From Candidatus Hydrogenedentota bacterium (lineage in GTDB: Bacteria; Hydrogenedentota; Hydrogenedentia; Hydrogenedentales; SLHB01), in contig BTVY01000012.1 in assembly GCA_045863335.1 (NCBI GenBank), forward strand, positions 64,001 to 128,000: 64,000 nt of DNA. Direction: 5' to 3'. The notes under the pieces were generated by a model, which saw only the letters and a program-made list of their open reading frames with translations, had not been told where the DNA came from and ran no database searches. Positions within the stretch are counted from its first letter, which is position 1; each line of letters starts with the position of its first letter. Positions 1-6,936 of this stretch are shown one piece after another. Made by a program: the position numbers and the translations under genes.

Positions 1-729
1 GTCGAGCAGGAACTCGAGGAACTCGTCGATCACCACGCCTTTGGCGGCGGCTTCGCCATCATCGTCGATTTCCTGGTTGCCGCTGGTGATATGCCGAATG
101 GCGCCGTCGATGACGATGGTGCCCGGGCCCGCGTCGAACGCGACCAGTTCGTCGAAGCTCGGCGGGATGACGGAGAGTGTGCTGATGCCGCCGAGGTGGA
201 GGCGCGCCATGATGCGGTCCTCGCGGGCGAACAACACGAAATCGGAATAGGTGGAGATAGGACCGCCCTGTCCGCCGGCCGCCATGTCACGGGCGCGGAA
301 ATCCGAGGCTACGGGCAAACCGGTTCGTTCCGCAATAACGGCCGACTCGCCGACCTGAAAGGTGCCGGTGGCCTGGTCATACCCACGGGGCGGATAGTGG
401 GCCACGGTAAATCCGGTGGAAGCGACGAAATCGACCTCGCACATCTCGGACTGCGCGAGGCGGACCATTTCCTGGGCGGCGTCCGCGAGGAACTCGCCGA
501 GTTCGAAGTTGAGCAGGCAGACTTCGCGCACGTCCTTCTTGGCCACGATCAGGCGCGTGCGCAAACCCGAGGAATAGGGGAAATGGCGCGTCTTCATGAG
601 CTTCATGTGGAGGCCCGGTCCGCTCCCCTTGATGCGGACCAGTGCGGCGTCTACCCCGCGGGCAGAACTGCCGCAGGTCAAACCTATGGCGAATCGCGTC
701 GCCTTCTTGGAGATTGCCTGGAAAAGCAT
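1..729 (-). CDS. anmK: Anhydro-N-acetylmuramic acid kinase-like protein (divergent), 3' end truncated by window edge
   Basis: Not in ORF track; manual translation from ATG 729: MLFQAISKKATRFAIGLTCGSSARGVDAALVRI...ERTGLPVASDFRARDMAAGGQGGPI...LHLGGIS...AFDAGPG; AAAGGT RBS upstream; frame open to position 1. Confidence 0.85.
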   Translation of the reverse strand, partial: MLFQAISKKATRFAIGLTCGSSARGVDAALVRIKGSGPGLHMKLMKTRHFPYSSGLRTRLIVAKKDVREVCLLNFELGEFLADAAQEMVRLAQSEMCEVDFVASTGFTVAHYPPRGYDQATGTFQVGESAVIAERTGLPVASDFRARDMAAGGQGGPISTYSDFVLFAREDRIMARLHLGGISTLSVIPPSFDELVAFDAGPGTIVIDGAIRHITSGNQEIDDDGEAAAKGVVIDEFLEFLLD

Positions 730-762
730 CGTCTACCTTTACTTACGTCCGCGGGCCGGCAC

Positions 763-2415
763 TCACTTCACGGTTTCCAACAGTGCATTGCCAAAGTAGT
801 GGAGCAGAATGTCCCCGTACCCCGCACCGGCAAGCGCCATGCCCCGCGCGCCATGCTGACACAATCCTACCCCATGGCCACGTCCGCCGCCAACAAAGGT
901 GAACGCGGTTGATCCGTCAGCCCTTATTAATACCATGGCGCTGGGCAAACCGCCAAACGCTTGGCGGATAGGGAGTTCCTTGCGAATGGTCACACTGCCG
1001 GAGGAGCCGGTGACGGTGACGGACTTGAGCCGGCCACTCACGCCCCGCTCGCCGGGGGTGATGGAGCGCACCGTGCCGACCTTGTAGCGCTGGTTAACGA
1101 GCCGCGTCACCTCGGCCACGGTGAGCCGCCGGGACCAGCGGAACCCCGCGTCGCCGCTGCAGTAGGCGTTCGGCTGTTGTTGCAGCCATTTCCCCAGATT
1201 GGCGGACGGCGTGGAGGTTGGAACCGTTCCCTTCGGAAAGTCAGCCGCGCCGCGCAGGCTCATGTCCGGTGGCGAAGACCAGACGGCATCGTTGTCCTCA
1301 GACCAACCGCCGCAGTTGGAGCTGAACACGGCCGGGATGGTGCGGACGCCATCCGTCAGGACTTGGCCGCGTGTCGCGACGACGGCGGCATCGGTGGCGG
1401 GGTGCCGGCCGCTGAATCCGCCGTAGACCCGGTCGCCCTCGCTGTTCGTGAAATTAAACCCGTTAAGAATATGCTTGAGCGCGAGGTGCCCCAGGACGTC
1501 GCTTCGAGCAGCGATGGCCTGGGCTTTCAACGCTTCGGACGGCCACAGGGCGGGCATTTCCGCGGGTAGCACCCCGGCGAGGTAGTCTTCCACCGGGAGC
1601 GTTTCGAAGACGCTCAACGCGGAATCGGACTCGACCGCCAGGCTGATTTCTCCGGTGTAAGACGCACCGGACCGGTCGCCGGGGTGGCTGACGCGAATCG
1701 GGGCCGTCGAGGTCAACCGGAAGGGTACGGGCCAATTCATGGTGTGGCCATCGGGTGATTTGGCCGTGACGGTTCCGCTGCCCGGCAGAATGGTCTCGGG
1801 CCGGACCCAGGACCACTGGTTGTCCTGTTCCAGTTCCTTCTTGAAGGCGTTGGCCTGGGCTTCGGTTTCAAAACGGTGCAGGGAAATCCAATACTCCCGG
1901 CCGTCGAGGATGTGGCCGGACGCGGTCCGGTAACGCGACCCCATGAGGATGGGTTCCACGGGATAGCCTTGTGCGCGCCATCCCTCCACATAGGCATTCA
2001 TCACGTCCGCTTCATGGGGTTTGAAGGTTTTGACGAAATTGTGGAAATGCTGGCGCGGCGGAGTGGCCTGGGTCAGGGTGAGCGACCACGACGCGCCCGG
2101 GAGATCGAGCGCCCCCCCATCATGTTCGAGGCGTATTGCGCTGGTGCTTTGAATGTCTACCGACCGCGCGCCGTGAAAGAGCCGAATCGTGACAGGCGGA
2201 TTCGCCTCGGTGACAGTGTCCTCGGGTTTCGACTCAGGCGCCGGGGCCGGAGCGGACGCCGGTTGCGGCGCGGGTGCGGGTGCAGGCGCTGCTACAGGCC
2301 ACGGCGCTGGCGGCGGCTCGGGTGAGCGGCAACCGGTCCATGTCGCGCCAATCACTAGAACCAAGAACGCAAGACTCGCACGCCACAAGCCGTGCCCCGT
2401 TAGGGGCGAAATCAC
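763..2415 (-). CDS. SpoIID/LytB domain lipoprotein (putative lytic transglycosylase)
   Basis: YLAGVLPAEMPALWPSEALKAQAIAARS and GHGVGLCQHGARGMA...ILLHYF motifs; lipobox-like WTGC followed by Pro/Ala linker; start placed at GTG 2415 (uncertain). Confidence 0.88.
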   Translation of the reverse strand: MISPLTGHGLWRASLAFLVLVIGATWTGCRSPEPPPAPWPVAAPAPAPAPQPASAPAPAPESKPEDTVTEANPPVTIRLFHGARSVDIQSTSAIRLEHDGGALDLPGASWSLTLTQATPPRQHFHNFVKTFKPHEADVMNAYVEGWRAQGYPVEPILMGSRYRTASGHILDGREYWISLHRFETEAQANAFKKELEQDNQWSWVRPETILPGSGTVTAKSPDGHTMNWPVPFRLTSTAPIRVSHPGDRSGASYTGEISLAVESDSALSVFETLPVEDYLAGVLPAEMPALWPSEALKAQAIAARSDVLGHLALKHILNGFNFTNSEGDRVYGGFSGRHPATDAAVVATRGQVLTDGVRTIPAVFSSNCGGWSEDNDAVWSSPPDMSLRGAADFPKGTVPTSTPSANLGKWLQQQPNAYCSGDAGFRWSRRLTVAEVTRLVNQRYKVGTVRSITPGERGVSGRLKSVTVTGSSGSVTIRKELPIRQAFGGLPSAMVLIRADGSTAFTFVGGGRGHGVGLCQHGARGMALAGAGYGDILLHYFGNALLETVK

Positions 2416-2428
2416 GCCGCGGACGTGA

Positions 2429-2703
2429 CCCAGGGCATCGCCCTGGGAACGGGAACGCAAGAAATGAATCGCCCTGAAAGGGCGAAACACGGACCTTGCA
2501 GTGGTCGCGTTCTCCGATTTCGATTGGATGTTGCGCTCCTTCAGAGCTTGAACATGGAGAGTACGTTCGTATCCCAGGGCGTTGCCCTGGGCTATCCTAT
2601 TGTGGCCTTTCAGGCCAATTTTTGGGATGGTCGGACGAAGCCGGGTTGCATGAACGGCGACGTCGAGTAGGGTTCGAAGAAGCAGGCGGGACGCCTGCGC
2701 TAC
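2429..2703. repeat. REP/REPIN-like palindromic cluster
   Basis: CCCAGGGC-N3-GCCCTGGG at 2429-2447 and 2573-2591; CGCCCTGAAAGGGCG 2470-2484; CGCTCCTTCAGAGC 2534-2547; GGCCTTTCAGGCC 2604-2616; GCAGGCGGGACGCCTGCGCTAC 2682-2703. Confidence 0.75.
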
Positions 2704-2731
2704 ATGGCTGGTGACATTGGTGCTCGGGGAG

Positions 2732-4594
2732 TCAATCACGTTCCAATGCGGCACGCAGGTTTCCTTTCGATTCGGTTAGTTGCGCCTCGGCTTGGTCGCG
2801 GGGGACGCCACGGCGTTTCATGAGGACGGCCACGCGTATGTCGTCGCCCGCGACGCGCAACTGGGTGTCCGCCTCGGACTCGGGCAAGCCGGTCAACGCA
2901 GCGACGATGCGCGTGGCGCGTTTGCGCAGTTTCGCGTTCATGGGTTTGACGCCCACCATGTATCCCTCGAAGATGCGACCGGAAAGAGCCATGGCGCCGG
3001 TGGAGATCATGTTGAGCACGAGCTTCGTGGCGGTGCCGGCCTTGAGGCGCGTCGACCCGGGCAGGACTTCCGGCCCGGTGTCCAACGCAATGGTCCAGTC
3101 GGCAATGCTGTGCGCAGAGGGATTGCAGCATAGCAGGCACGTGTATGCGCCGTGCCGCTTCGCTTCCGCGAGGCCCGCGTGCACGTACGGAGTGGTGCCC
3201 GAGGCGGCGATTCCGACGACCACGTCATGCTCGCATAGCTTCGGTTGTAATGCGCCCAGATCGGCGACGGCCGCGGCCTCGTCGTCTTCGACGCCTTCGC
3301 CGCTGGAGCGGAGCGCCGCGTCGCCGCCCGCGATGATGCCGACGACCTGTCCAGGGTCCACTCCGAAGGTGGGCGGGCATTCCGACGCGTCCAGTACACC
3401 AAGCCTTCCGCTCGTTCCCGCGCCAAGGTAGATAAGCCGTCCACCGGCTGCGAACGCGTCAGCAACGCGCTGCACCATATGAGCGATCGGTGCGCGGGCG
3501 GCGCGCGTGGCGTCGACGGCTTCCTGGTCAGCGTCGCACATGCGCGCAACGATGGCGTCGGCGGTGAGGGTGTCGAGGAATCGCTCGTGTTGCGTTGCGG
3601 ATTCCGTTCGGGAGAGGACCACTTCCGTCGCGACGGATCCGGCGCGAGCTTCGGAAACGAACAGCGAGCGACTGGGGTCGGCAATCAGACGCAAACTCGC
3701 CGCGGTTCCATCAAACCGCGTTCGCTCAAACGTAGAAGGCAAAGCAGGGTTGCCATGACAATTCTTAACCATCGACTGAGCACGGTCGACGAGTTCGGGA
3801 AGCGCGTCGACCACGCCCCCGTGAATGTACATAGGGGCAGCATTCGTCAGTCCGGTTTCAAGTGCCGCGTTGGCAGCGAGTGCGAACAATTCGGTTAGGG
3901 CGTCAACGACACATCCCTCCGCCGCGCTATCCGAATCGTGATACAGAGCAATCACCGCCGGTGCCAGCGACGCGACGTCCTGCTTCGTCGCGGAACGCGA
4001 CCAGACGATCAACTCGGAAAAGGTGCGCAGTCCCGCAGCTTCCGGTAGCGCGTCCACCAACTTGGTGGGTCCGCATTGACCGTCTAGGGACGCGGCGGCG
4101 GCGCGCAAGGCGCGGACTGCAATGTCGTAGGCGCTGCCCACGTCGCCGAAAAGCGCGCCACGGCCGCCGAAGATGCGGGGCTGGCCTCCGGCAGTCTTTG
4201 CGATGACGCTGGAGCCCGTGCCCGCAATGACGACCATGCCCTCGCCGTCGCCGATGTTGGCGTGCAGCATGGTGTCCACATCGCTGGCGACCACGGCGCG
4301 TCGCACACCCAGCGACTGGACCAGTCCATTCGCGATGGCATTACGCAGCATCTCATTCCGCGCGCCGGAGATCCCGGCAGCGACTTCGCAGGTTGACGCG
4401 TCCCGCGCACCGAGCAGTTCCCGGCCGAGTTGGATCAGCATGCGAAGTGACTGTGGAACTCCCAACTCAACCGGGTTGGACGGACCGCCCGTTCGTTCTG
4501 CAATCGCGTTGCCTTCCGCGTCATAGAGTGCGGCGCGTGTGGCCGTGCCGCCGCCATCAAACGCAAGGTAGATTGTGTCGTGAGGATCTGTCAT
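2732..4594 (-). CDS. murQ: Fused BadF/BadG/BcrA/BcrD-family amino-sugar kinase + N-acetylmuramic acid 6-phosphate etherase
   Basis: N-term FDGGGT, GPSNP, IAGTGS, GDVGSA; C-term GGRLIYLGAGTSGRLGVLDASECPPTFG, GPEVLPGSTRLKAGTATKLVLNMIST; ATG 4594 overlaps upstream stop (ATGA). Confidence 0.92.
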   Translation of the reverse strand: MTDPHDTIYLAFDGGGTATRAALYDAEGNAIAERTGGPSNPVELGVPQSLRMLIQLGRELLGARDASTCEVAAGISGARNEMLRNAIANGLVQSLGVRRAVVASDVDTMLHANIGDGEGMVVIAGTGSSVIAKTAGGQPRIFGGRGALFGDVGSAYDIAVRALRAAAASLDGQCGPTKLVDALPEAAGLRTFSELIVWSRSATKQDVASLAPAVIALYHDSDSAAEGCVVDALTELFALAANAALETGLTNAAPMYIHGGVVDALPELVDRAQSMVKNCHGNPALPSTFERTRFDGTAASLRLIADPSRSLFVSEARAGSVATEVVLSRTESATQHERFLDTLTADAIVARMCDADQEAVDATRAARAPIAHMVQRVADAFAAGGRLIYLGAGTSGRLGVLDASECPPTFGVDPGQVVGIIAGGDAALRSSGEGVEDDEAAAVADLGALQPKLCEHDVVVGIAASGTTPYVHAGLAEAKRHGAYTCLLCCNPSAHSIADWTIALDTGPEVLPGSTRLKAGTATKLVLNMISTGAMALSGRIFEGYMVGVKPMNAKLRKRATRIVAALTGLPESEADTQLRVAGDDIRVAVLMKRRGVPRDQAEAQLTESKGNLRAALERD

Positions 4595-5883
4595 GAGACT
4601 CGCGCTGCCTGCGCATACTTCTCCACGATCCCGACACGGATCGTGCCGTTCTCGCAGATGTCCTTGTAGAGATAGGCGCTTGGGTTGGGCGTCCGCGCGA
4701 GGGTCTCGCGATCGACGTGGACCAATCCGTACCGCGCGGCATATCCGTCGATCCATTCAAAGCCATCCAACATGGAGCGATGAAAATAGCCGCGCACATG
4801 GATACCTTGCGCGAGGGCTTCCTGCACGATCGCCAGATGATTCACGAGGTATGCGCACCGCGCGGCGTCATCCGTTGTATCGAGGCCATTTCCGGTTATG
4901 TAAATGGGCTTTCCGTATTCGGAAATCGTTTTGAGCACTTCCCGCAGCCCCTCCGGGTCCGTTTCATACCGGGGGGGTCGTATCGGACTTCCCGTTGGAT
5001 CGGTTAATGCCCGAAAGAACTGTCGCGGTTTCCCGGCGCGAAAGCAGACGCGCTCTTTTCCGTAATACGAAACCGCGATAAAATCCGCGCCCCCCCCCAG
5101 ACGTCGCGCACCACCGAGCGGAAACGGGGCCTCGTCCCGAATCATCGCCGCGGGAAACAGGTCGTTGGCCCGGCGCATTTCACGGCGCGCCGCCCTCAGG
5201 TCCCAGGCGCTCTCTTCGTTTACCGGCACGCAATTGCGCGCGCGGATGGAAAGGCCCACTGCGGCCTCCGGCTGAAGGCGTTGGATGATGGCGTAGCTCT
5301 CCGCTTGGGCGTGCATCAGCGCGTTCAACGCAGTGAATATAGACCAAATGCCGCGCCGCCCCGGAGGCCATTGTCCTTCGAGCCACGCCATGGTGGCGAG
5401 GTGTTCCGGTTCCAGCAACGGAATCCAATGCGCGCAGTATTCGGAAAGGGCCTCGACGACGCGCTGCACAAAAGCGCCGAAGGTGCGCGCTGCGTCGCGC
5501 TGCAACCATCCTCCCCGATCGGCAAACCAGGCCGGCAACGTCACATGATTGAGCGCGCAGATGGGCGTCATGCCGCGCCGCCGCAGGGCCTCCGCGACGT
5601 GTGCGTAATGAACGAGCGCCTCGGGATCGAAATGGTCGGGTTCGGGCTGGACCCGGCTCCACTCGATCGAAAACAGATGCGCGTTGTGACCCAGTTTGCG
5701 CGCGAGTTCGAAATCCGATTCGTAGTGTTCGAAATGCTCCGAGGCGCGACTCGACGTGCGACGGTCGGCGATGCGGCCGGGACGCTGTTCCCAGCGCCAC
5801 CAATCGGCATTAAAGTTGCCCCCTTCCACTTTGTACGCGGACGTAGTGGCTCCCCAGAGAAAGTCTTTCGGAAAGGCGTTCAC
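4591..5883 (-). CDS. Glycoside hydrolase family 1-fold protein with non-canonical active site
   Basis: FPKDFLWGATTSAYKVEG, FSIEWSRVQP, GYFHRSMLDGFEW; LEP and ITGNG in place of NEP and ITENG; GTG start 5883 with GGAG RBS. Confidence 0.9.
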   Translation of the reverse strand: MNAFPKDFLWGATTSAYKVEGGNFNADWWRWEQRPGRIADRRTSSRASEHFEHYESDFELARKLGHNAHLFSIEWSRVQPEPDHFDPEALVHYAHVAEALRRRGMTPICALNHVTLPAWFADRGGWLQRDAARTFGAFVQRVVEALSEYCAHWIPLLEPEHLATMAWLEGQWPPGRRGIWSIFTALNALMHAQAESYAIIQRLQPEAAVGLSIRARNCVPVNEESAWDLRAARREMRRANDLFPAAMIRDEAPFPLGGARRLGGGADFIAVSYYGKERVCFRAGKPRQFFRALTDPTGSPIRPPRYETDPEGLREVLKTISEYGKPIYITGNGLDTTDDAARCAYLVNHLAIVQEALAQGIHVRGYFHRSMLDGFEWIDGYAARYGLVHVDRETLARTPNPSAYLYKDICENGTIRVGIVEKYAQAARVS

Positions 5884-5988
5884 ACGGTACTCCCCACCGC
5901 GTCTCATGTCTGATGTCCGCCAGCCAGCAGCGGGGTGACAACGGTGCGCCCCAATGGTAGCATGGCCGTCTCGCATGGAGAAAACGGA

Positions 5989-6936
5989 ATGACAACCAAC
6001 GAGGTGGCCGTACTGATGGCCTTGCTCCGGATACCCGGCGCAGGAACGGTGTCCGCGCGACGCGCCGTGGCCTTGGCGGCGCACCTCGGCGTTCCGCTCG
6101 ATGCGCTTCCACTCATTCCCACACGGCAACTGTTGGAGCAGTTCCCGACGAGTCAGACCGATCAATTGGCGTCTTTCCTTCCGCAATGTACCGGGGAAGC
6201 CTGCGACCATGAGGTGAGGTTCCTGGATCGTATACTCCGGTCGGGAGCCCAAGTCATCACCTGCGCGGACGGTGACTATCCCGATTCACTCGCTCGCGAC
6301 TTGGGGAATCGGGCGCCCGCCCTGCTTTTCCTGGCAGGCGATCGGGAACTGCTCGAAGCGCCTTCGGCCGCGGTCGTTGGCGCGCGGGAAGTCAGCCGGC
6401 GCGGTGCGATGCTGGCAGGCGAAACCGCAGCCGTCTTCGCGGGCGCCGGCATCAACGTGGTGAGCGGCGGCGCGACGGGGGTCGATTCGGCGGCCCATGC
6501 GACGGCGCTGGCGCATGGCGGTACGACGGTCGTCGTATTGCCGCAGGGTCTGTTACCCTTCCGCGGTTCGCGCGAGTTGCTGCAAGCGGTGGAGGACGGC
6601 CGTGCGGCGATTCTGAGCGAGTTCTTGCCCGACATGACGTGGCAAACCCACGCCGCGGTAACGCGCAACGCGACGATCAGCGCGCTGTCGAACTTGGTCT
6701 GCGTCATCGAACCCAAGAAGCAGGGCGGCAGCGTGCGGACCGCTCGGCTGGCCATCGAGCATGGGAAACGCGTGCTCGTCTATTGCGACGCGCAGCACCT
6801 GGATCTGGGTACCACGTTGACCCGTTCGGGCGCGGTGTCACTACTCGATGCCGAGGGCCAGTTCAACCCGGAATACCTGCTTCAGCAGTGGAATTCAGCC
6901 CCCGCTCAATCCGCGGGACAGACGGAACTCTTTTAA
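5989..6936 (+). CDS. dprA: DNA-processing protein DprA/Smf family
   Basis: DYPDSL..APALLFLAG, AVVGAR, VVSGGATGVDSAAHATAL, RNATISALS, GGS..TARLAIEHGK. Confidence 0.85.
   Translation: MTTNEVAVLMALLRIPGAGTVSARRAVALAAHLGVPLDALPLIPTRQLLEQFPTSQTDQLASFLPQCTGEACDHEVRFLDRILRSGAQVITCADGDYPDSLARDLGNRAPALLFLAGDRELLEAPSAAVVGAREVSRRGAMLAGETAAVFAGAGINVVSGGATGVDSAAHATALAHGGTTVVVLPQGLLPFRGSRELLQAVEDGRAAILSEFLPDMTWQTHAAVTRNATISALSNLVCVIEPKKQGGSVRTARLAIEHGKRVLVYCDAQHLDLGTTLTRSGAVSLLDAEGQFNPEYLLQQWNSAPAQSAGQTELF

Follow-up and report, generated by a model that had tools for sequence, protein, structure and literature searches.

Gene content of the locus

The window considered here, a stretch of 64,000 nucleotides from a Candidatus Hydrogenedentota bacterium (contig BTVY01000012.1, positions 64,001 to 128,000; G000:C12:64001-128000), comes from a genome that is 99.4% complete. 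At its start are four open reading frames (ORFs) on the minus strand, all in one orientation, that are evident from the ORF listing and the sequence. They encode a protein with the fold of glycoside hydrolase family 1 (GH1) that lacks the catalytic nucleophile, a fusion of a sugar kinase with MurQ, a SpoIID/LytB-domain protein and an AnmK-family kinase (Table 1). GH1* is used as shorthand for the nucleophile-less GH1-fold protein of the window and for its clade. A preliminary description, made from the letters of this DNA, had proposed the four co-oriented genes with these domains, the ATGA coupling of the first two and the missing nucleophile. The ORF listing and family scores bear out the genes. 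The overlap is real in the sequence, with the kinase ATG at 4594-4592 and the GH1* TGA at 4593-4591, and the nucleophile Glu is indeed absent, as YITGNG (Gly339) aligns with YITENG of Pyrococcus horikoshii BGPh (1vff).

Some gene ends allow a choice. GH1* may start at ATG 5907 or at an alternative GTG, 5883, which is preceded by GGGGAG, and the SpoIID protein most likely starts at GTG 2415, or else at TTG 2388. The AnmK-family gene begins 33 nucleotides beyond the SpoIID end and is cut by the window edge; the whole gene encodes 386 residues (L001:11569-12729).

Table 1. Features of the cluster, in window coordinates, and the second AnmK copy of the source genome, in contig coordinates
Feature	Position	Strand	Remarks
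GH1*	4591..5907	-	438 aa from ATG 5907; PF00232; nucleophile site Gly339 in YITGNG, Glu166 in LLEP
ATGA overlap, GH1* stop/kinase-MurQ start	4591..4594	-	seen in the sequence; translational coupling
BadF/BadG-type sugar kinase domain, fusion N-terminus (~aa 1-320)	3635..4594	-	PF01869; DGGGT and AGTGS motifs
MurQ domain (MurNAc-6-phosphate etherase, SIS fold), fusion C-terminus	2732..3634	-	TIGR00274, NF003915
MurQ/SpoIID spacer, 316 nt	2416..2731		terminator-like hairpin and Acido-Lenti-1 RNA motif
Exported SpoIID/LytB-domain protein	763..2415	-	550 aa from GTG 2415; PF08486, TIGR02669
AnmK-family kinase, first 243 codons	1..729	-	gene runs past window start; PF03702
Second AnmK	contig C53:32476-33585 (L183:8408-9592)	+	canonical, 321 bits, far from the operon

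A GH1 family member without its nucleophile

GH1 is the textbook double-displacement family. By sequence the window protein belongs to it (PF00232, 263.5 bits; cut-off 22.6), and it falls short of the beta-glucosidase equivalog TIGR03356 (263.7 bits; cut-off 478.5). Its AlphaFold model (predicted local distance difference test, pLDDT, 88.6, with low confidence about residues 26-60) is a GH1 (beta/alpha)8 barrel that matches 1vff with a template-modelling (TM) score of 0.85 at 32% identity. No signal peptide was seen at the N-terminus, and the protein is cytoplasmic.

How widespread is the loss? Among the 120 best database homologues and the query (n = 121), the nucleophile column holds Gly in 96 proteins, Ala in 23 and Cys in one, with one gap, and Glu in none (0/121). 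A pattern scan of one genome per prokaryotic species yielded 79 loci, from which 75 GH1 sequences were extracted, 38 of them nucleophile-less and 37 canonical; the nucleophile Glu is present in 0/38 of the former, which serve as species representatives. The acid/base Glu is more often retained: the LLEP of the window protein aligns with FNEP of 1vff, such that Glu166 is kept and Asn is changed to Leu, and Glu166 is found in 104/121 proteins. The Asn of the NEP motif is present in 0/38 species.

The active site was read from an alignment of the 38 sequences with the 37 nearest canonical GH1s. Eight positions that are invariant in the canonical set vary in the clade: Q26 (A16/Q10/S5 and others), R78 (L27), H121 (H18/E12/D4), N165 (L14/M7/Y6/R4/F2), E166 (E26), Y282 (Y21), E339 (G29/A4) and W377 (R23). 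Two switches are nearly fixed, N382 to Gly (37/38) and T163 to Pro (37/38). The only side chains both gained and conserved are Arg42, an insertion with respect to most canonical relatives, Trp235 and Gly283, and the pair Glu384 and Trp385, which presumably binds O4/O6, remains conserved. The C2 side of the pocket (positions 339, 78 and 165) is consistently small or hydrophobic. Eleven of the 38 sequences have no carboxylate at 166, and nine of these eleven carry Glu or Asp at 121; a carboxylate at one or the other of these neighbouring positions is found in 36/38, a count that represents only about four independent lineages. On this alignment, the active site of GH1* looks relaxed rather than re-specialised. 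A lactyl-binding -1 subsite, where Lys26 and Arg377 would hold the lactyl group of MurNAc (N-acetylmuramic acid) in an exo-muramidase, was considered and rejected: Lys26 occurs in 8/121 proteins and the position is variable.

The kinase-MurQ fusion

The 620-residue product of the second gene is a BcrAD_BadFG family member over residues 13-266 (PF01869, 78.5 bits vs 31.5) and a MurQ over residues ~328-619, where it scores 309 bits vs 302 with TIGR00274 (model positions 3-291 of 291) and, at equivalog level, 350.8 bits vs 168 with NF003915. It is not a member of the NagK_SO3507 equivalog NF046058 (70.1 bits vs 370). Among solved structures, the kinase part is closest to a MurNAc/GlcNAc kinase (8zo3, 85.9 bits; GlcNAc, N-acetylglucosamine) and the etherase part to MurQ 4s12 (234 bits). 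DGGGT and AGTGS, the phosphate motifs of the acetate and sugar kinase/Hsc70/actin (ASKHA) superfamily, are conserved in 23 aligned fusions.

The fusion is the usual form. Of the 120 best homologues, 119 combine BadF and MurQ/SIS domains in a single protein, kinase and MurQ share one frame in most GH1* loci, and MurQ, found in 101/135 genomes of the phylum, lies nearly always within an open frame of 600-750 residues. The exceptional homologue, P0009, combines BadF with GH1. This 697-residue GH1-kinase fusion (P0009/L038), one frame in the public record, was rejected as Rosetta-stone evidence; it is probably an assembly frameshift, because the GH1 is split over two frames and kinase and MurQ are in different frames. 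A complex prediction for GH1* with the kinase domain (residues 1-320) gave no answer (score 0.00) and weighs neither way on binding.

Conserved gene order

Conservation of the gene order in relatives was looked for, and dozens of Hydrogenedentota species have the order GH1*-kinase-MurQ-(SpoIID)-AnmK. Forty GH1* loci from phylum genomes were searched by tblastn with the window proteins; several of these loci end at contig ends. The kinase is directly downstream of GH1* in 34/40, MurQ is matched in 30/40, AnmK in 25/40 and SpoIID in 21/40, and a divergent DprA gene is present in 21/40. The GH1* stop and the kinase start share the 4-nucleotide overlap in 23/35 loci and overlap in some form in 32/35, own locus included. 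Chance falls far short of explaining an arrangement found again and again in the phylum.

Thirty-six of the 38 nucleophile-less sequences of the pattern scan adjoin a kinase, MurQ, SpoIID or AnmK match; the other two (L121, L155) show none in the stretch examined. The 37 canonical relatives, with their xNEP, TENG and W...DNFEW motifs, come from other phyla (Chloroflexota, Caldisericota, Coprothermobacterota, Omnitrophota, Patescibacteria, Planctomycetota, an Actinomycete and others), and none has kinase, MurQ, SpoIID or AnmK neighbours.

What is found where GH1* is missing? Twenty kinase-MurQ loci from genomes scored as lacking GH1* were examined by ORF maps and query-protein matches. They have the order kinase-MurQ-(SpoIID)-AnmK, with SpoIID in 13/20 and divergent DprA in 11/20. 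In 18/20 there is no GH1 match beside kinase-MurQ, and the other two (L101, L102) carry decayed GH1*.

Origin and distribution of the GH1* clade

All 38 nucleophile-less sequences come from metagenome-assembled genomes of Hydrogenedentota; a few are labelled otherwise in the records, and their contigs are identical to genomes of the phylum set. In a quick maximum-likelihood tree (IQ-TREE), one branch separates the nucleophile-less from the canonical sequences with 100% support in the Shimodaira-Hasegawa-like approximate likelihood ratio test (SH-aLRT). The nucleophile was lost once, in a single clade confined to the phylum. The DWWxxEQ loop that the clade has in common with 1vff shows its descent from BGPh-like GH1s. 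Gene content, family membership, conserved order, coupling and this single-origin loss are all direct observations.

A protein search of the 135 phylum genomes gave matches in 67 at E <= 1e-30, of which 60 are clade members at E <= 1e-55. The remaining seven comprise two canonical GH1 paralogues that were checked (G083, G116), two decayed copies (G010, G012) and three further matches (G102, G025, G002). Five more canonical GH1 paralogues were confirmed in genomes where GH1* is present too. The decayed copies (L101, L102) have 28-29% identity and DREEW/DRAEW in place of DGFEW, and their frame is still open. Because the core cluster exists without GH1*, the latter is an accessory member, which was either gained once and often lost or spread within the phylum.

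Median identities to the window proteins, over 12 complete non-congeneric loci, are 44% for GH1*, 40% for the kinase, 44% for SpoIID, 55% for MurQ and 55% for AnmK. Judged by these values, GH1* is under selection like its neighbours and is not decaying as a whole.

Two genera depart from the usual arrangement. Genus g30 (L044, L050, L052, L111-L114, L117, L134) has GH1*-kinase pairs without MurQ, with Glu166 changed to Thr/Asn and His121 to Glu/Asp. In genus g28 (L059, L060), GH1* is present without the kinase and is flanked by a galactokinase-like gene and a gene for a 713-residue TPR-SLT lytic transglycosylase; in two of these genomes the GH1* match contains one in-frame TGA.

The SpoIID/LytB protein

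The third gene encodes a SpoIID/LytB-domain protein (PF08486, about 75.5-75.8 bits; TIGR02669, 158 bits vs 83.3) that is not a member of the sporulation SpoIID equivalog TIGR02870 (98.3 bits vs 234.75). Its PAEM...EALKAQAIAAR aligns with ASEM...EALKAQALAAR of 4rwr, as does the motif GHGVGLCQHGARGMA, and the C-terminal GHGVG...Q.GA.GMA motif is present. The signal peptide ends in ...VIGATWTG-C, which is lipobox-like with an unusual Trp at -3, and is followed by a Pro/Ala-rich linker. Many orthologues, by eye, have a signal peptide followed by Cys and others an Ala-X-Ala-type end; a strict pattern is matched by 8/36. A SPOR domain was suspected in the N-terminal half and rejected, as Pfam at E <= 0.01 shows the SpoIID domain only.

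We take the aligned Glu of the SpoIID motif to be the essential E88, and on these motifs the protein is predicted to be a lytic transglycosylase or muramidase that cuts glycan strands. According to PMC6635528, E88 is essential in Bacillus SpoIID, SpoIID homologues of non-sporulating diderms give anhydro- and non-anhydro-muropeptides in vitro, and the Waddlia homologue acts on sacculi to release anhydromuropeptides and on denuded glycans to give mostly non-anhydro products.

Two AnmK paralogues

AnmK is present in 133/135 phylum genomes, and the source genome has two paralogues, of which the operon copy is divergent. The latter is an AnmK-family protein (PF03702, 153.7 bits for the 243 residues in the window and 257.2 vs 24 for the full 386), but it remains below its best equivalog, NF007148 (371.6 bits vs 387). 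Its motifs are GLTCGSSARGVD, GGQGGPI and FDAGPGT, which depart from the canonical GLMSGTSxDGxD and FDTGPGN; the FD motif retains its Asp, presumably the catalytic base. In a phmmer comparison with this copy, the fungal levoglucosan kinase 4zxz (209 bits) outscores the solved AnmKs (147-149 bits). The second copy is canonical, with GLMSGSSCDGVD, GGQGAPLVP and FDTGPGN, and GLMSG(T/S)SCDGVD/FDTGPGN occur in it and in most single-copy orthologues. It is flanked by a ceramidase-like gene and by an IS200-like Y1 transposase about 900 nucleotides downstream.

Is the divergence tied to the cluster? In most other families a single canonical AnmK (330-343 bits) is the operon copy, together with GH1*, and several genera in the family of the source organism have remodelled copies, whether or not GH1* is present. 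On these motifs and scores, the cluster does not always come with a remodelled AnmK. The remodelling that the preliminary description noted is thus real in the source genome (GLTCGSSARGVD/FDAGPGT) but does not extend to the cluster in general.

A proposed salvage pathway

The region is most likely a cluster for the salvage of peptidoglycan amino sugars, one that members of the phylum carry as standard. The substrates at every step, the direction of flux and any catalysis by GH1* are what we infer from the genes. The exported SpoIID/LytB protein would cut glycan strands outside the cytoplasm to give GlcNAc-1,6-anhydroMurNAc and possibly GlcNAc-MurNAc, and a transporter would import these products. 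AnmK would convert anhydroMurNAc to MurNAc-6-phosphate, from which the MurQ domain would remove D-lactate to give GlcNAc-6-phosphate, and the fused BadF-type kinase would phosphorylate free hexosamine (GlcNAc and/or MurNAc). GH1*, translated in step with the kinase, would act on GlcNAc-beta-1,4-(anhydro)MurNAc and hand GlcNAc to the kinase.

How could a GH1 protein without a nucleophile act on this disaccharide? In GH18, GH20 and GH84 the 2-acetamido group of the substrate acts as the nucleophile. Similar chemistry is proposed for GH1*, with Glu166 or the carboxylate at 121 as the acid, because the nucleophile is gone and the positions that contact C2 (Asn165, Arg78 and Glu339) are now small or hydrophobic, a change that would make room for an N-acetyl group. 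A substrate-assisted N-acetylglucosaminidase is thus a possible identity for GH1*, though an uncertain one, and the explanation as a whole, cluster pathway and GH1* chemistry together, is a tentative one with slightly less than an even chance of being right. The fuller historical version, that the clade lost its nucleophile once, early in the phylum, and has since consisted of cytoplasmic substrate-assisted beta-N-acetylglucosaminidases that split GlcNAc-(anhydro)MurNAc in NagZ's stead, is on balance doubtful.

Does GH1* take the place of NagZ?

The preliminary description saw a variant of peptidoglycan-glycan recycling with GH1 in the slot of NagZ, or else a pathway for a modified amino sugar, on which the evidence weighs neither way. 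The recycling part is favoured by the MurQ, AnmK and SpoIID/LytB memberships and by the synteny. A position of GH1 in a NagZ slot is not upheld, given its relaxed active site, the 18/20 loci that have no GH1 beside kinase-MurQ, a lack of anticorrelation with GH3 genes and a LysM-GH3 in the source genome. GH1* is itself not a GH3 protein.

The NagZ equivalog cut-off (NF003740, 207) is reached in 0/135 phylum genomes, against AnmK in 133/135 and MurQ in 101/135; this leaves the step without a clear NagZ and speaks for the proposed role of GH1*. Weaker GH3 NagZ-like matches (93-197 bits, mostly in frames of 600-1100 residues) are found in 78/135, and they are present in 44/60 genomes with GH1* vs 34/75 without. 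On these counts a complementary distribution of GH1* and GH3 NagZ-like genes was rejected. A NagZ in the empty slot was also looked for and rejected: of the six query proteins only operon genes and DprA matched, and there is no gene between DprA and kinase where the two are adjacent. No other glycosidase was seen in the slot in the ORF maps of the 20 loci scored as without GH1*, which were not put through a family scan. Replacement of NagZ by GH1 is not established, because the slot is empty where the core cluster lacks GH1*.

The source genome has its own candidate for this step. A GH3 protein encoded elsewhere (contig C39:37276-38208; L002:736-2832, minus strand) has 698 residues, three C-terminal LysM domains and an NF003740 score of 122.5 vs 207. 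It is likely an exported peptidoglycan-bound N-acetylglucosaminidase, which could do the NagZ step outside the cell. There is also a second GH3 (63.3 bits vs 207), with two weak GH20 matches and no other GH1 in the source genome. AmpG (TIGR00901) has no match in it, and an Mpl-like ligase (384.4 vs 388.7) and a NagA-like gene (204 vs 225.65) lie elsewhere.

Alternatives

Several observations weigh against the substrate-assisted pathway, among them the GH3 distribution, the relaxed active site, the decayed copies in the slot of two species and the divergent operon AnmK of the source genome. GH1* is dispensable: it is found in about 60/135 genomes, and the core cluster persists without it, its slot empty. 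No transporter is linked; clustering of all ORFs in 41 loci returned operon genes, DprA, a GH123-like gene and an oxidoreductase only. GH20 and GH84 carry D-E or D-D pairs at the acid/base, and no Asp/Asn beside this residue is conserved in the clade, position 165 being L/M/Y/R/F. Glu166 is missing in 12/38 species representatives and 17/121 proteins, with the gene still in the operon. Genus g30 keeps GH1*-kinase while MurQ (TIGR00274) is found in only 2/8 genomes. The pattern in g30 suggests that GH1* and the kinase are the tighter functional pair, which fits a handover of GlcNAc and also leaves room for another substrate.

Could GH1* be a pseudo-glycosidase? As a non-catalytic, sugar-binding triosephosphate isomerase (TIM) barrel, it would capture substrate for kinase-MurQ or regulate it, and the rest of the cluster would work as proposed above. 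The relaxation of eight catalytic or -1 subsite positions that are invariant in 37/37 canonical relatives is the pattern of a pseudoenzyme, as is the loss of both catalytic glutamates in 12/38 species. In two species (G010, G012) the slot before kinase-MurQ holds a copy (L101:5956-6849, L102:4853-5854) from which the nucleophile strand is deleted, with the frame still open. Only two switches are fixed (T163P, N382G) and no new acidic residue is conserved, GH1* is overall as well conserved as the neighbouring genes, and the tight coupling to the kinase in 32/35 loci is typical of stoichiometric partners. The replacements are, however, non-random, as seen in the consistently small or hydrophobic C2 pocket and in the carboxylate at 166 or 121 in 36/38 sequences; the dispensability of the gene in half of the phylum fits an accessory enzyme equally well; and no bacterial GH1 pseudoenzyme that has a kinase as its partner is known to us, which counts against this explanation. 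Both readings fit the state of the active site, and a pseudo-glycosidase is the somewhat less likely of the two.

A second alternative is that GH1*, the kinase and the AnmK-like protein form a module for another sugar, such as levoglucosan, anhydro-GlcNAc or a modified amino sugar, and that adjacency to MurQ and SpoIID reflects shared regulation only. The sugar of the operon AnmK could differ from anhydroMurNAc, because this divergent paralogue is near levoglucosan kinase, its best solved match (209 vs ~149 bits). The operon copy scores lower with Pfam than the second copy (257 vs 321 bits) and departs from the canonical P-loop-like and FDTGPGN motifs. Genus g30, with MurQ in so few of its genomes, keeps GH1*-kinase together with a divergent AnmK. 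In most families, however, GH1* shares the operon with the single canonical AnmK; MurQ scores above its equivalog cut-off and, across the phylum, forms one protein with the kinase; and the neighbours are SpoIID and, in two loci with GH1* only, an SLT transglycosylase. A module for another sugar is therefore quite improbable.

It is very unlikely that GH1* performs other nucleophile-free chemistry, as an inverting phosphorylase that takes phosphate into the Glu339 cavity and yields alpha-GlcNAc-1-phosphate or as a glycosynthase-like transglycosylase: the change of Glu to Gly/Ala in the clade is the one that turns GH1 enzymes into anion-rescued glycosynthases (engineered Abg/Agrobacterium enzymes), and Arg stands at 377 in 84/121 proteins and 23/38 species with Arg42/Arg45 conserved, but there is no invariant cationic pair at the nucleophile site (K26 in 8/121; R377 often Y/H/A/G/D), Arg78 is lost (Leu in 27/38), the acid/base is lost in 12/38, and the downstream kinase makes 6-phosphates, a misfit with a 1-phosphate product.

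Comparison with known systems

In the Gram-negative recycling of Escherichia coli and Pseudomonas, the sugar branch runs from a lytic transglycosylase through AmpG, NagZ, AnmK and MurQ to NagK. The cluster resembles this branch in AnmK, MurQ, a hexosamine kinase and a glycan cutter able to give anhydro ends, with Mpl-like and NagA-like genes elsewhere. It differs in that the cutter is SpoIID/LytB rather than Slt/Mlt, MurQ is joined to a kinase of BadF type, AmpG is absent from the source genome, NagZ is absent at cut-off from the 135 genomes, and a nucleophile-less GH1 heads the operon.

Clostridium acetobutylicum reportedly has MurK/MurQ, with a BadF-type MurNAc/GlcNAc kinase. A murT-murK-murQ operon with a kinase of this type is reported for Tannerella forsythia (PMC5790795). 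The pairing of a BadF/BadG kinase with MurQ is thus shared with both organisms, and the nearest solved kinase is likewise a MurNAc/GlcNAc kinase (8zo3). Unlike in these systems, kinase and MurQ form one polypeptide here and no MurT or phosphotransferase system (PTS) transporter is alongside.

GH1* shares with BGPh the fold, the short loop-A DWWxxEQ, the acid/base Glu (in the window protein) and the Glu-Trp of DxFEW. It differs in the mostly Gly/Ala nucleophile position of the clade and in NEP Asn, Arg78, Gln26, Trp377 and Asn382, all lost or variable. Its genomic context of cell-wall sugar genes is found in none of the canonical relatives.

Substrate-assisted hexosaminidases are known in GH18, GH20, GH84, GH85 and GH123. 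GH1* would be like them in its lack of an enzyme nucleophile, its single acid/base carboxylate, its hydrophobic pocket where the N-acetyl group would sit and its expected 2-acetamido substrate; they belong to other fold families, and the polarising Asp/Asn by the acid/base is not conserved in GH1*. Catalytically dead relatives of glycoside hydrolases are also known, the GH18 chitinase-like lectins and the GH1 Klotho domains, which are eukaryotic, extracellular binding proteins. Like these, GH1* has lost catalytic carboxylates and kept the fold under long-term purifying selection, but it is bacterial, cytoplasmic and inside a catabolic operon.

The SpoIID protein shares the SpoIID/LytB domain, the Glu-bearing (S/A)EM...EALKAQ, the C-terminal GHGVG...Q.GA.GMA and export with the Bacillus/Clostridioides SpoIID and the Waddlia chondrophila homologue. 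It differs in ~260 extra N-terminal residues, the Pro/Ala linker among them, and in being tied to AnmK/MurQ rather than to SpoIIP/SpoIIM.

Spacer and neighbouring genes

The MurQ/SpoIID spacer contains a terminator-like hairpin at 2485..2469 (minus strand); the terminator scan as a whole gave 10 sites vs 6.8 +/- 2.6 expected, which is not above chance. Because of the 316-nucleotide gap and the hairpin, GH1*/kinase-MurQ and SpoIID/AnmK could possibly be two transcription units. The same spacer carries, opposite to the operon strand, a match to the Rfam Acido-Lenti-1 motif (2573..2617, plus strand; 37.6 bits vs a gathering score of 37), and a related palindrome with two 8-base arms lies at 2429..2447, 130 nucleotides away. 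The source genome has 30 such matches, 11 above the gathering score, some of them clustered on contigs C7 and C9. The match looks like a multi-copy palindromic element rather than an operon-specific regulator, and to our knowledge the motif has not been described before in this phylum.

Upstream, dprA (5935..6936, plus strand) is divergent from the operon, with an intergenic region of only 27-51 nucleotides, according to the choice of starts; nothing points to a functional link. Beyond the window start, an 898-residue GH123-like gene (L001:8582-11278, plus strand) is convergent with AnmK. GH123 is a substrate-assisted N-acetylhexosaminidase family. A homologue of this gene lies near the operon in 7/41 loci and is once co-oriented, downstream of kinase-MurQ (L043). 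In the ORF clustering of the 41 loci, the recurrent neighbours are DprA, the GH123-like gene (7) and a GFO/IDH/MocA oxidoreductase (6); others are housekeeping genes.

Significance

The pathway logic is that of the known AnmK/MurQ route with a MurK-like kinase. What is new lies in the arrangement: the kinase-MurQ fusion as the standard of a phylum, the tie between SpoIID and AnmK, and the lack of AmpG or a true NagZ. New above all is the monophyletic clade of nucleophile-less GH1 proteins coupled to a kinase. A literature search, which left subscription journals largely uncovered, found no paper that treats a bacterial GH1 lacking its nucleophile, links GH1 to MurNAc, AnmK or MurQ, or deals with MurQ in Hydrogenedentes. 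The public names 'beta-glucosidase' and 'MurQ' hide the loss of the catalytic residue and the fusion.

Peptidoglycan recycling has been worked out mainly in Proteobacteria and Firmicutes, and an uncultured phylum here shows its own wiring. A long-lived, monophyletic branch of GH1 without the nucleophile represents either a mechanistic switch or a bacterial metabolic pseudoenzyme, both of which are rare. If GH1* does prove to be a substrate-assisted enzyme that splits GlcNAc-(anhydro)MurNAc in NagZ's stead, GH1 would gain its first neighbouring-group mechanism, and cell-wall recycling a new, non-orthologous enzyme at one of its steps.

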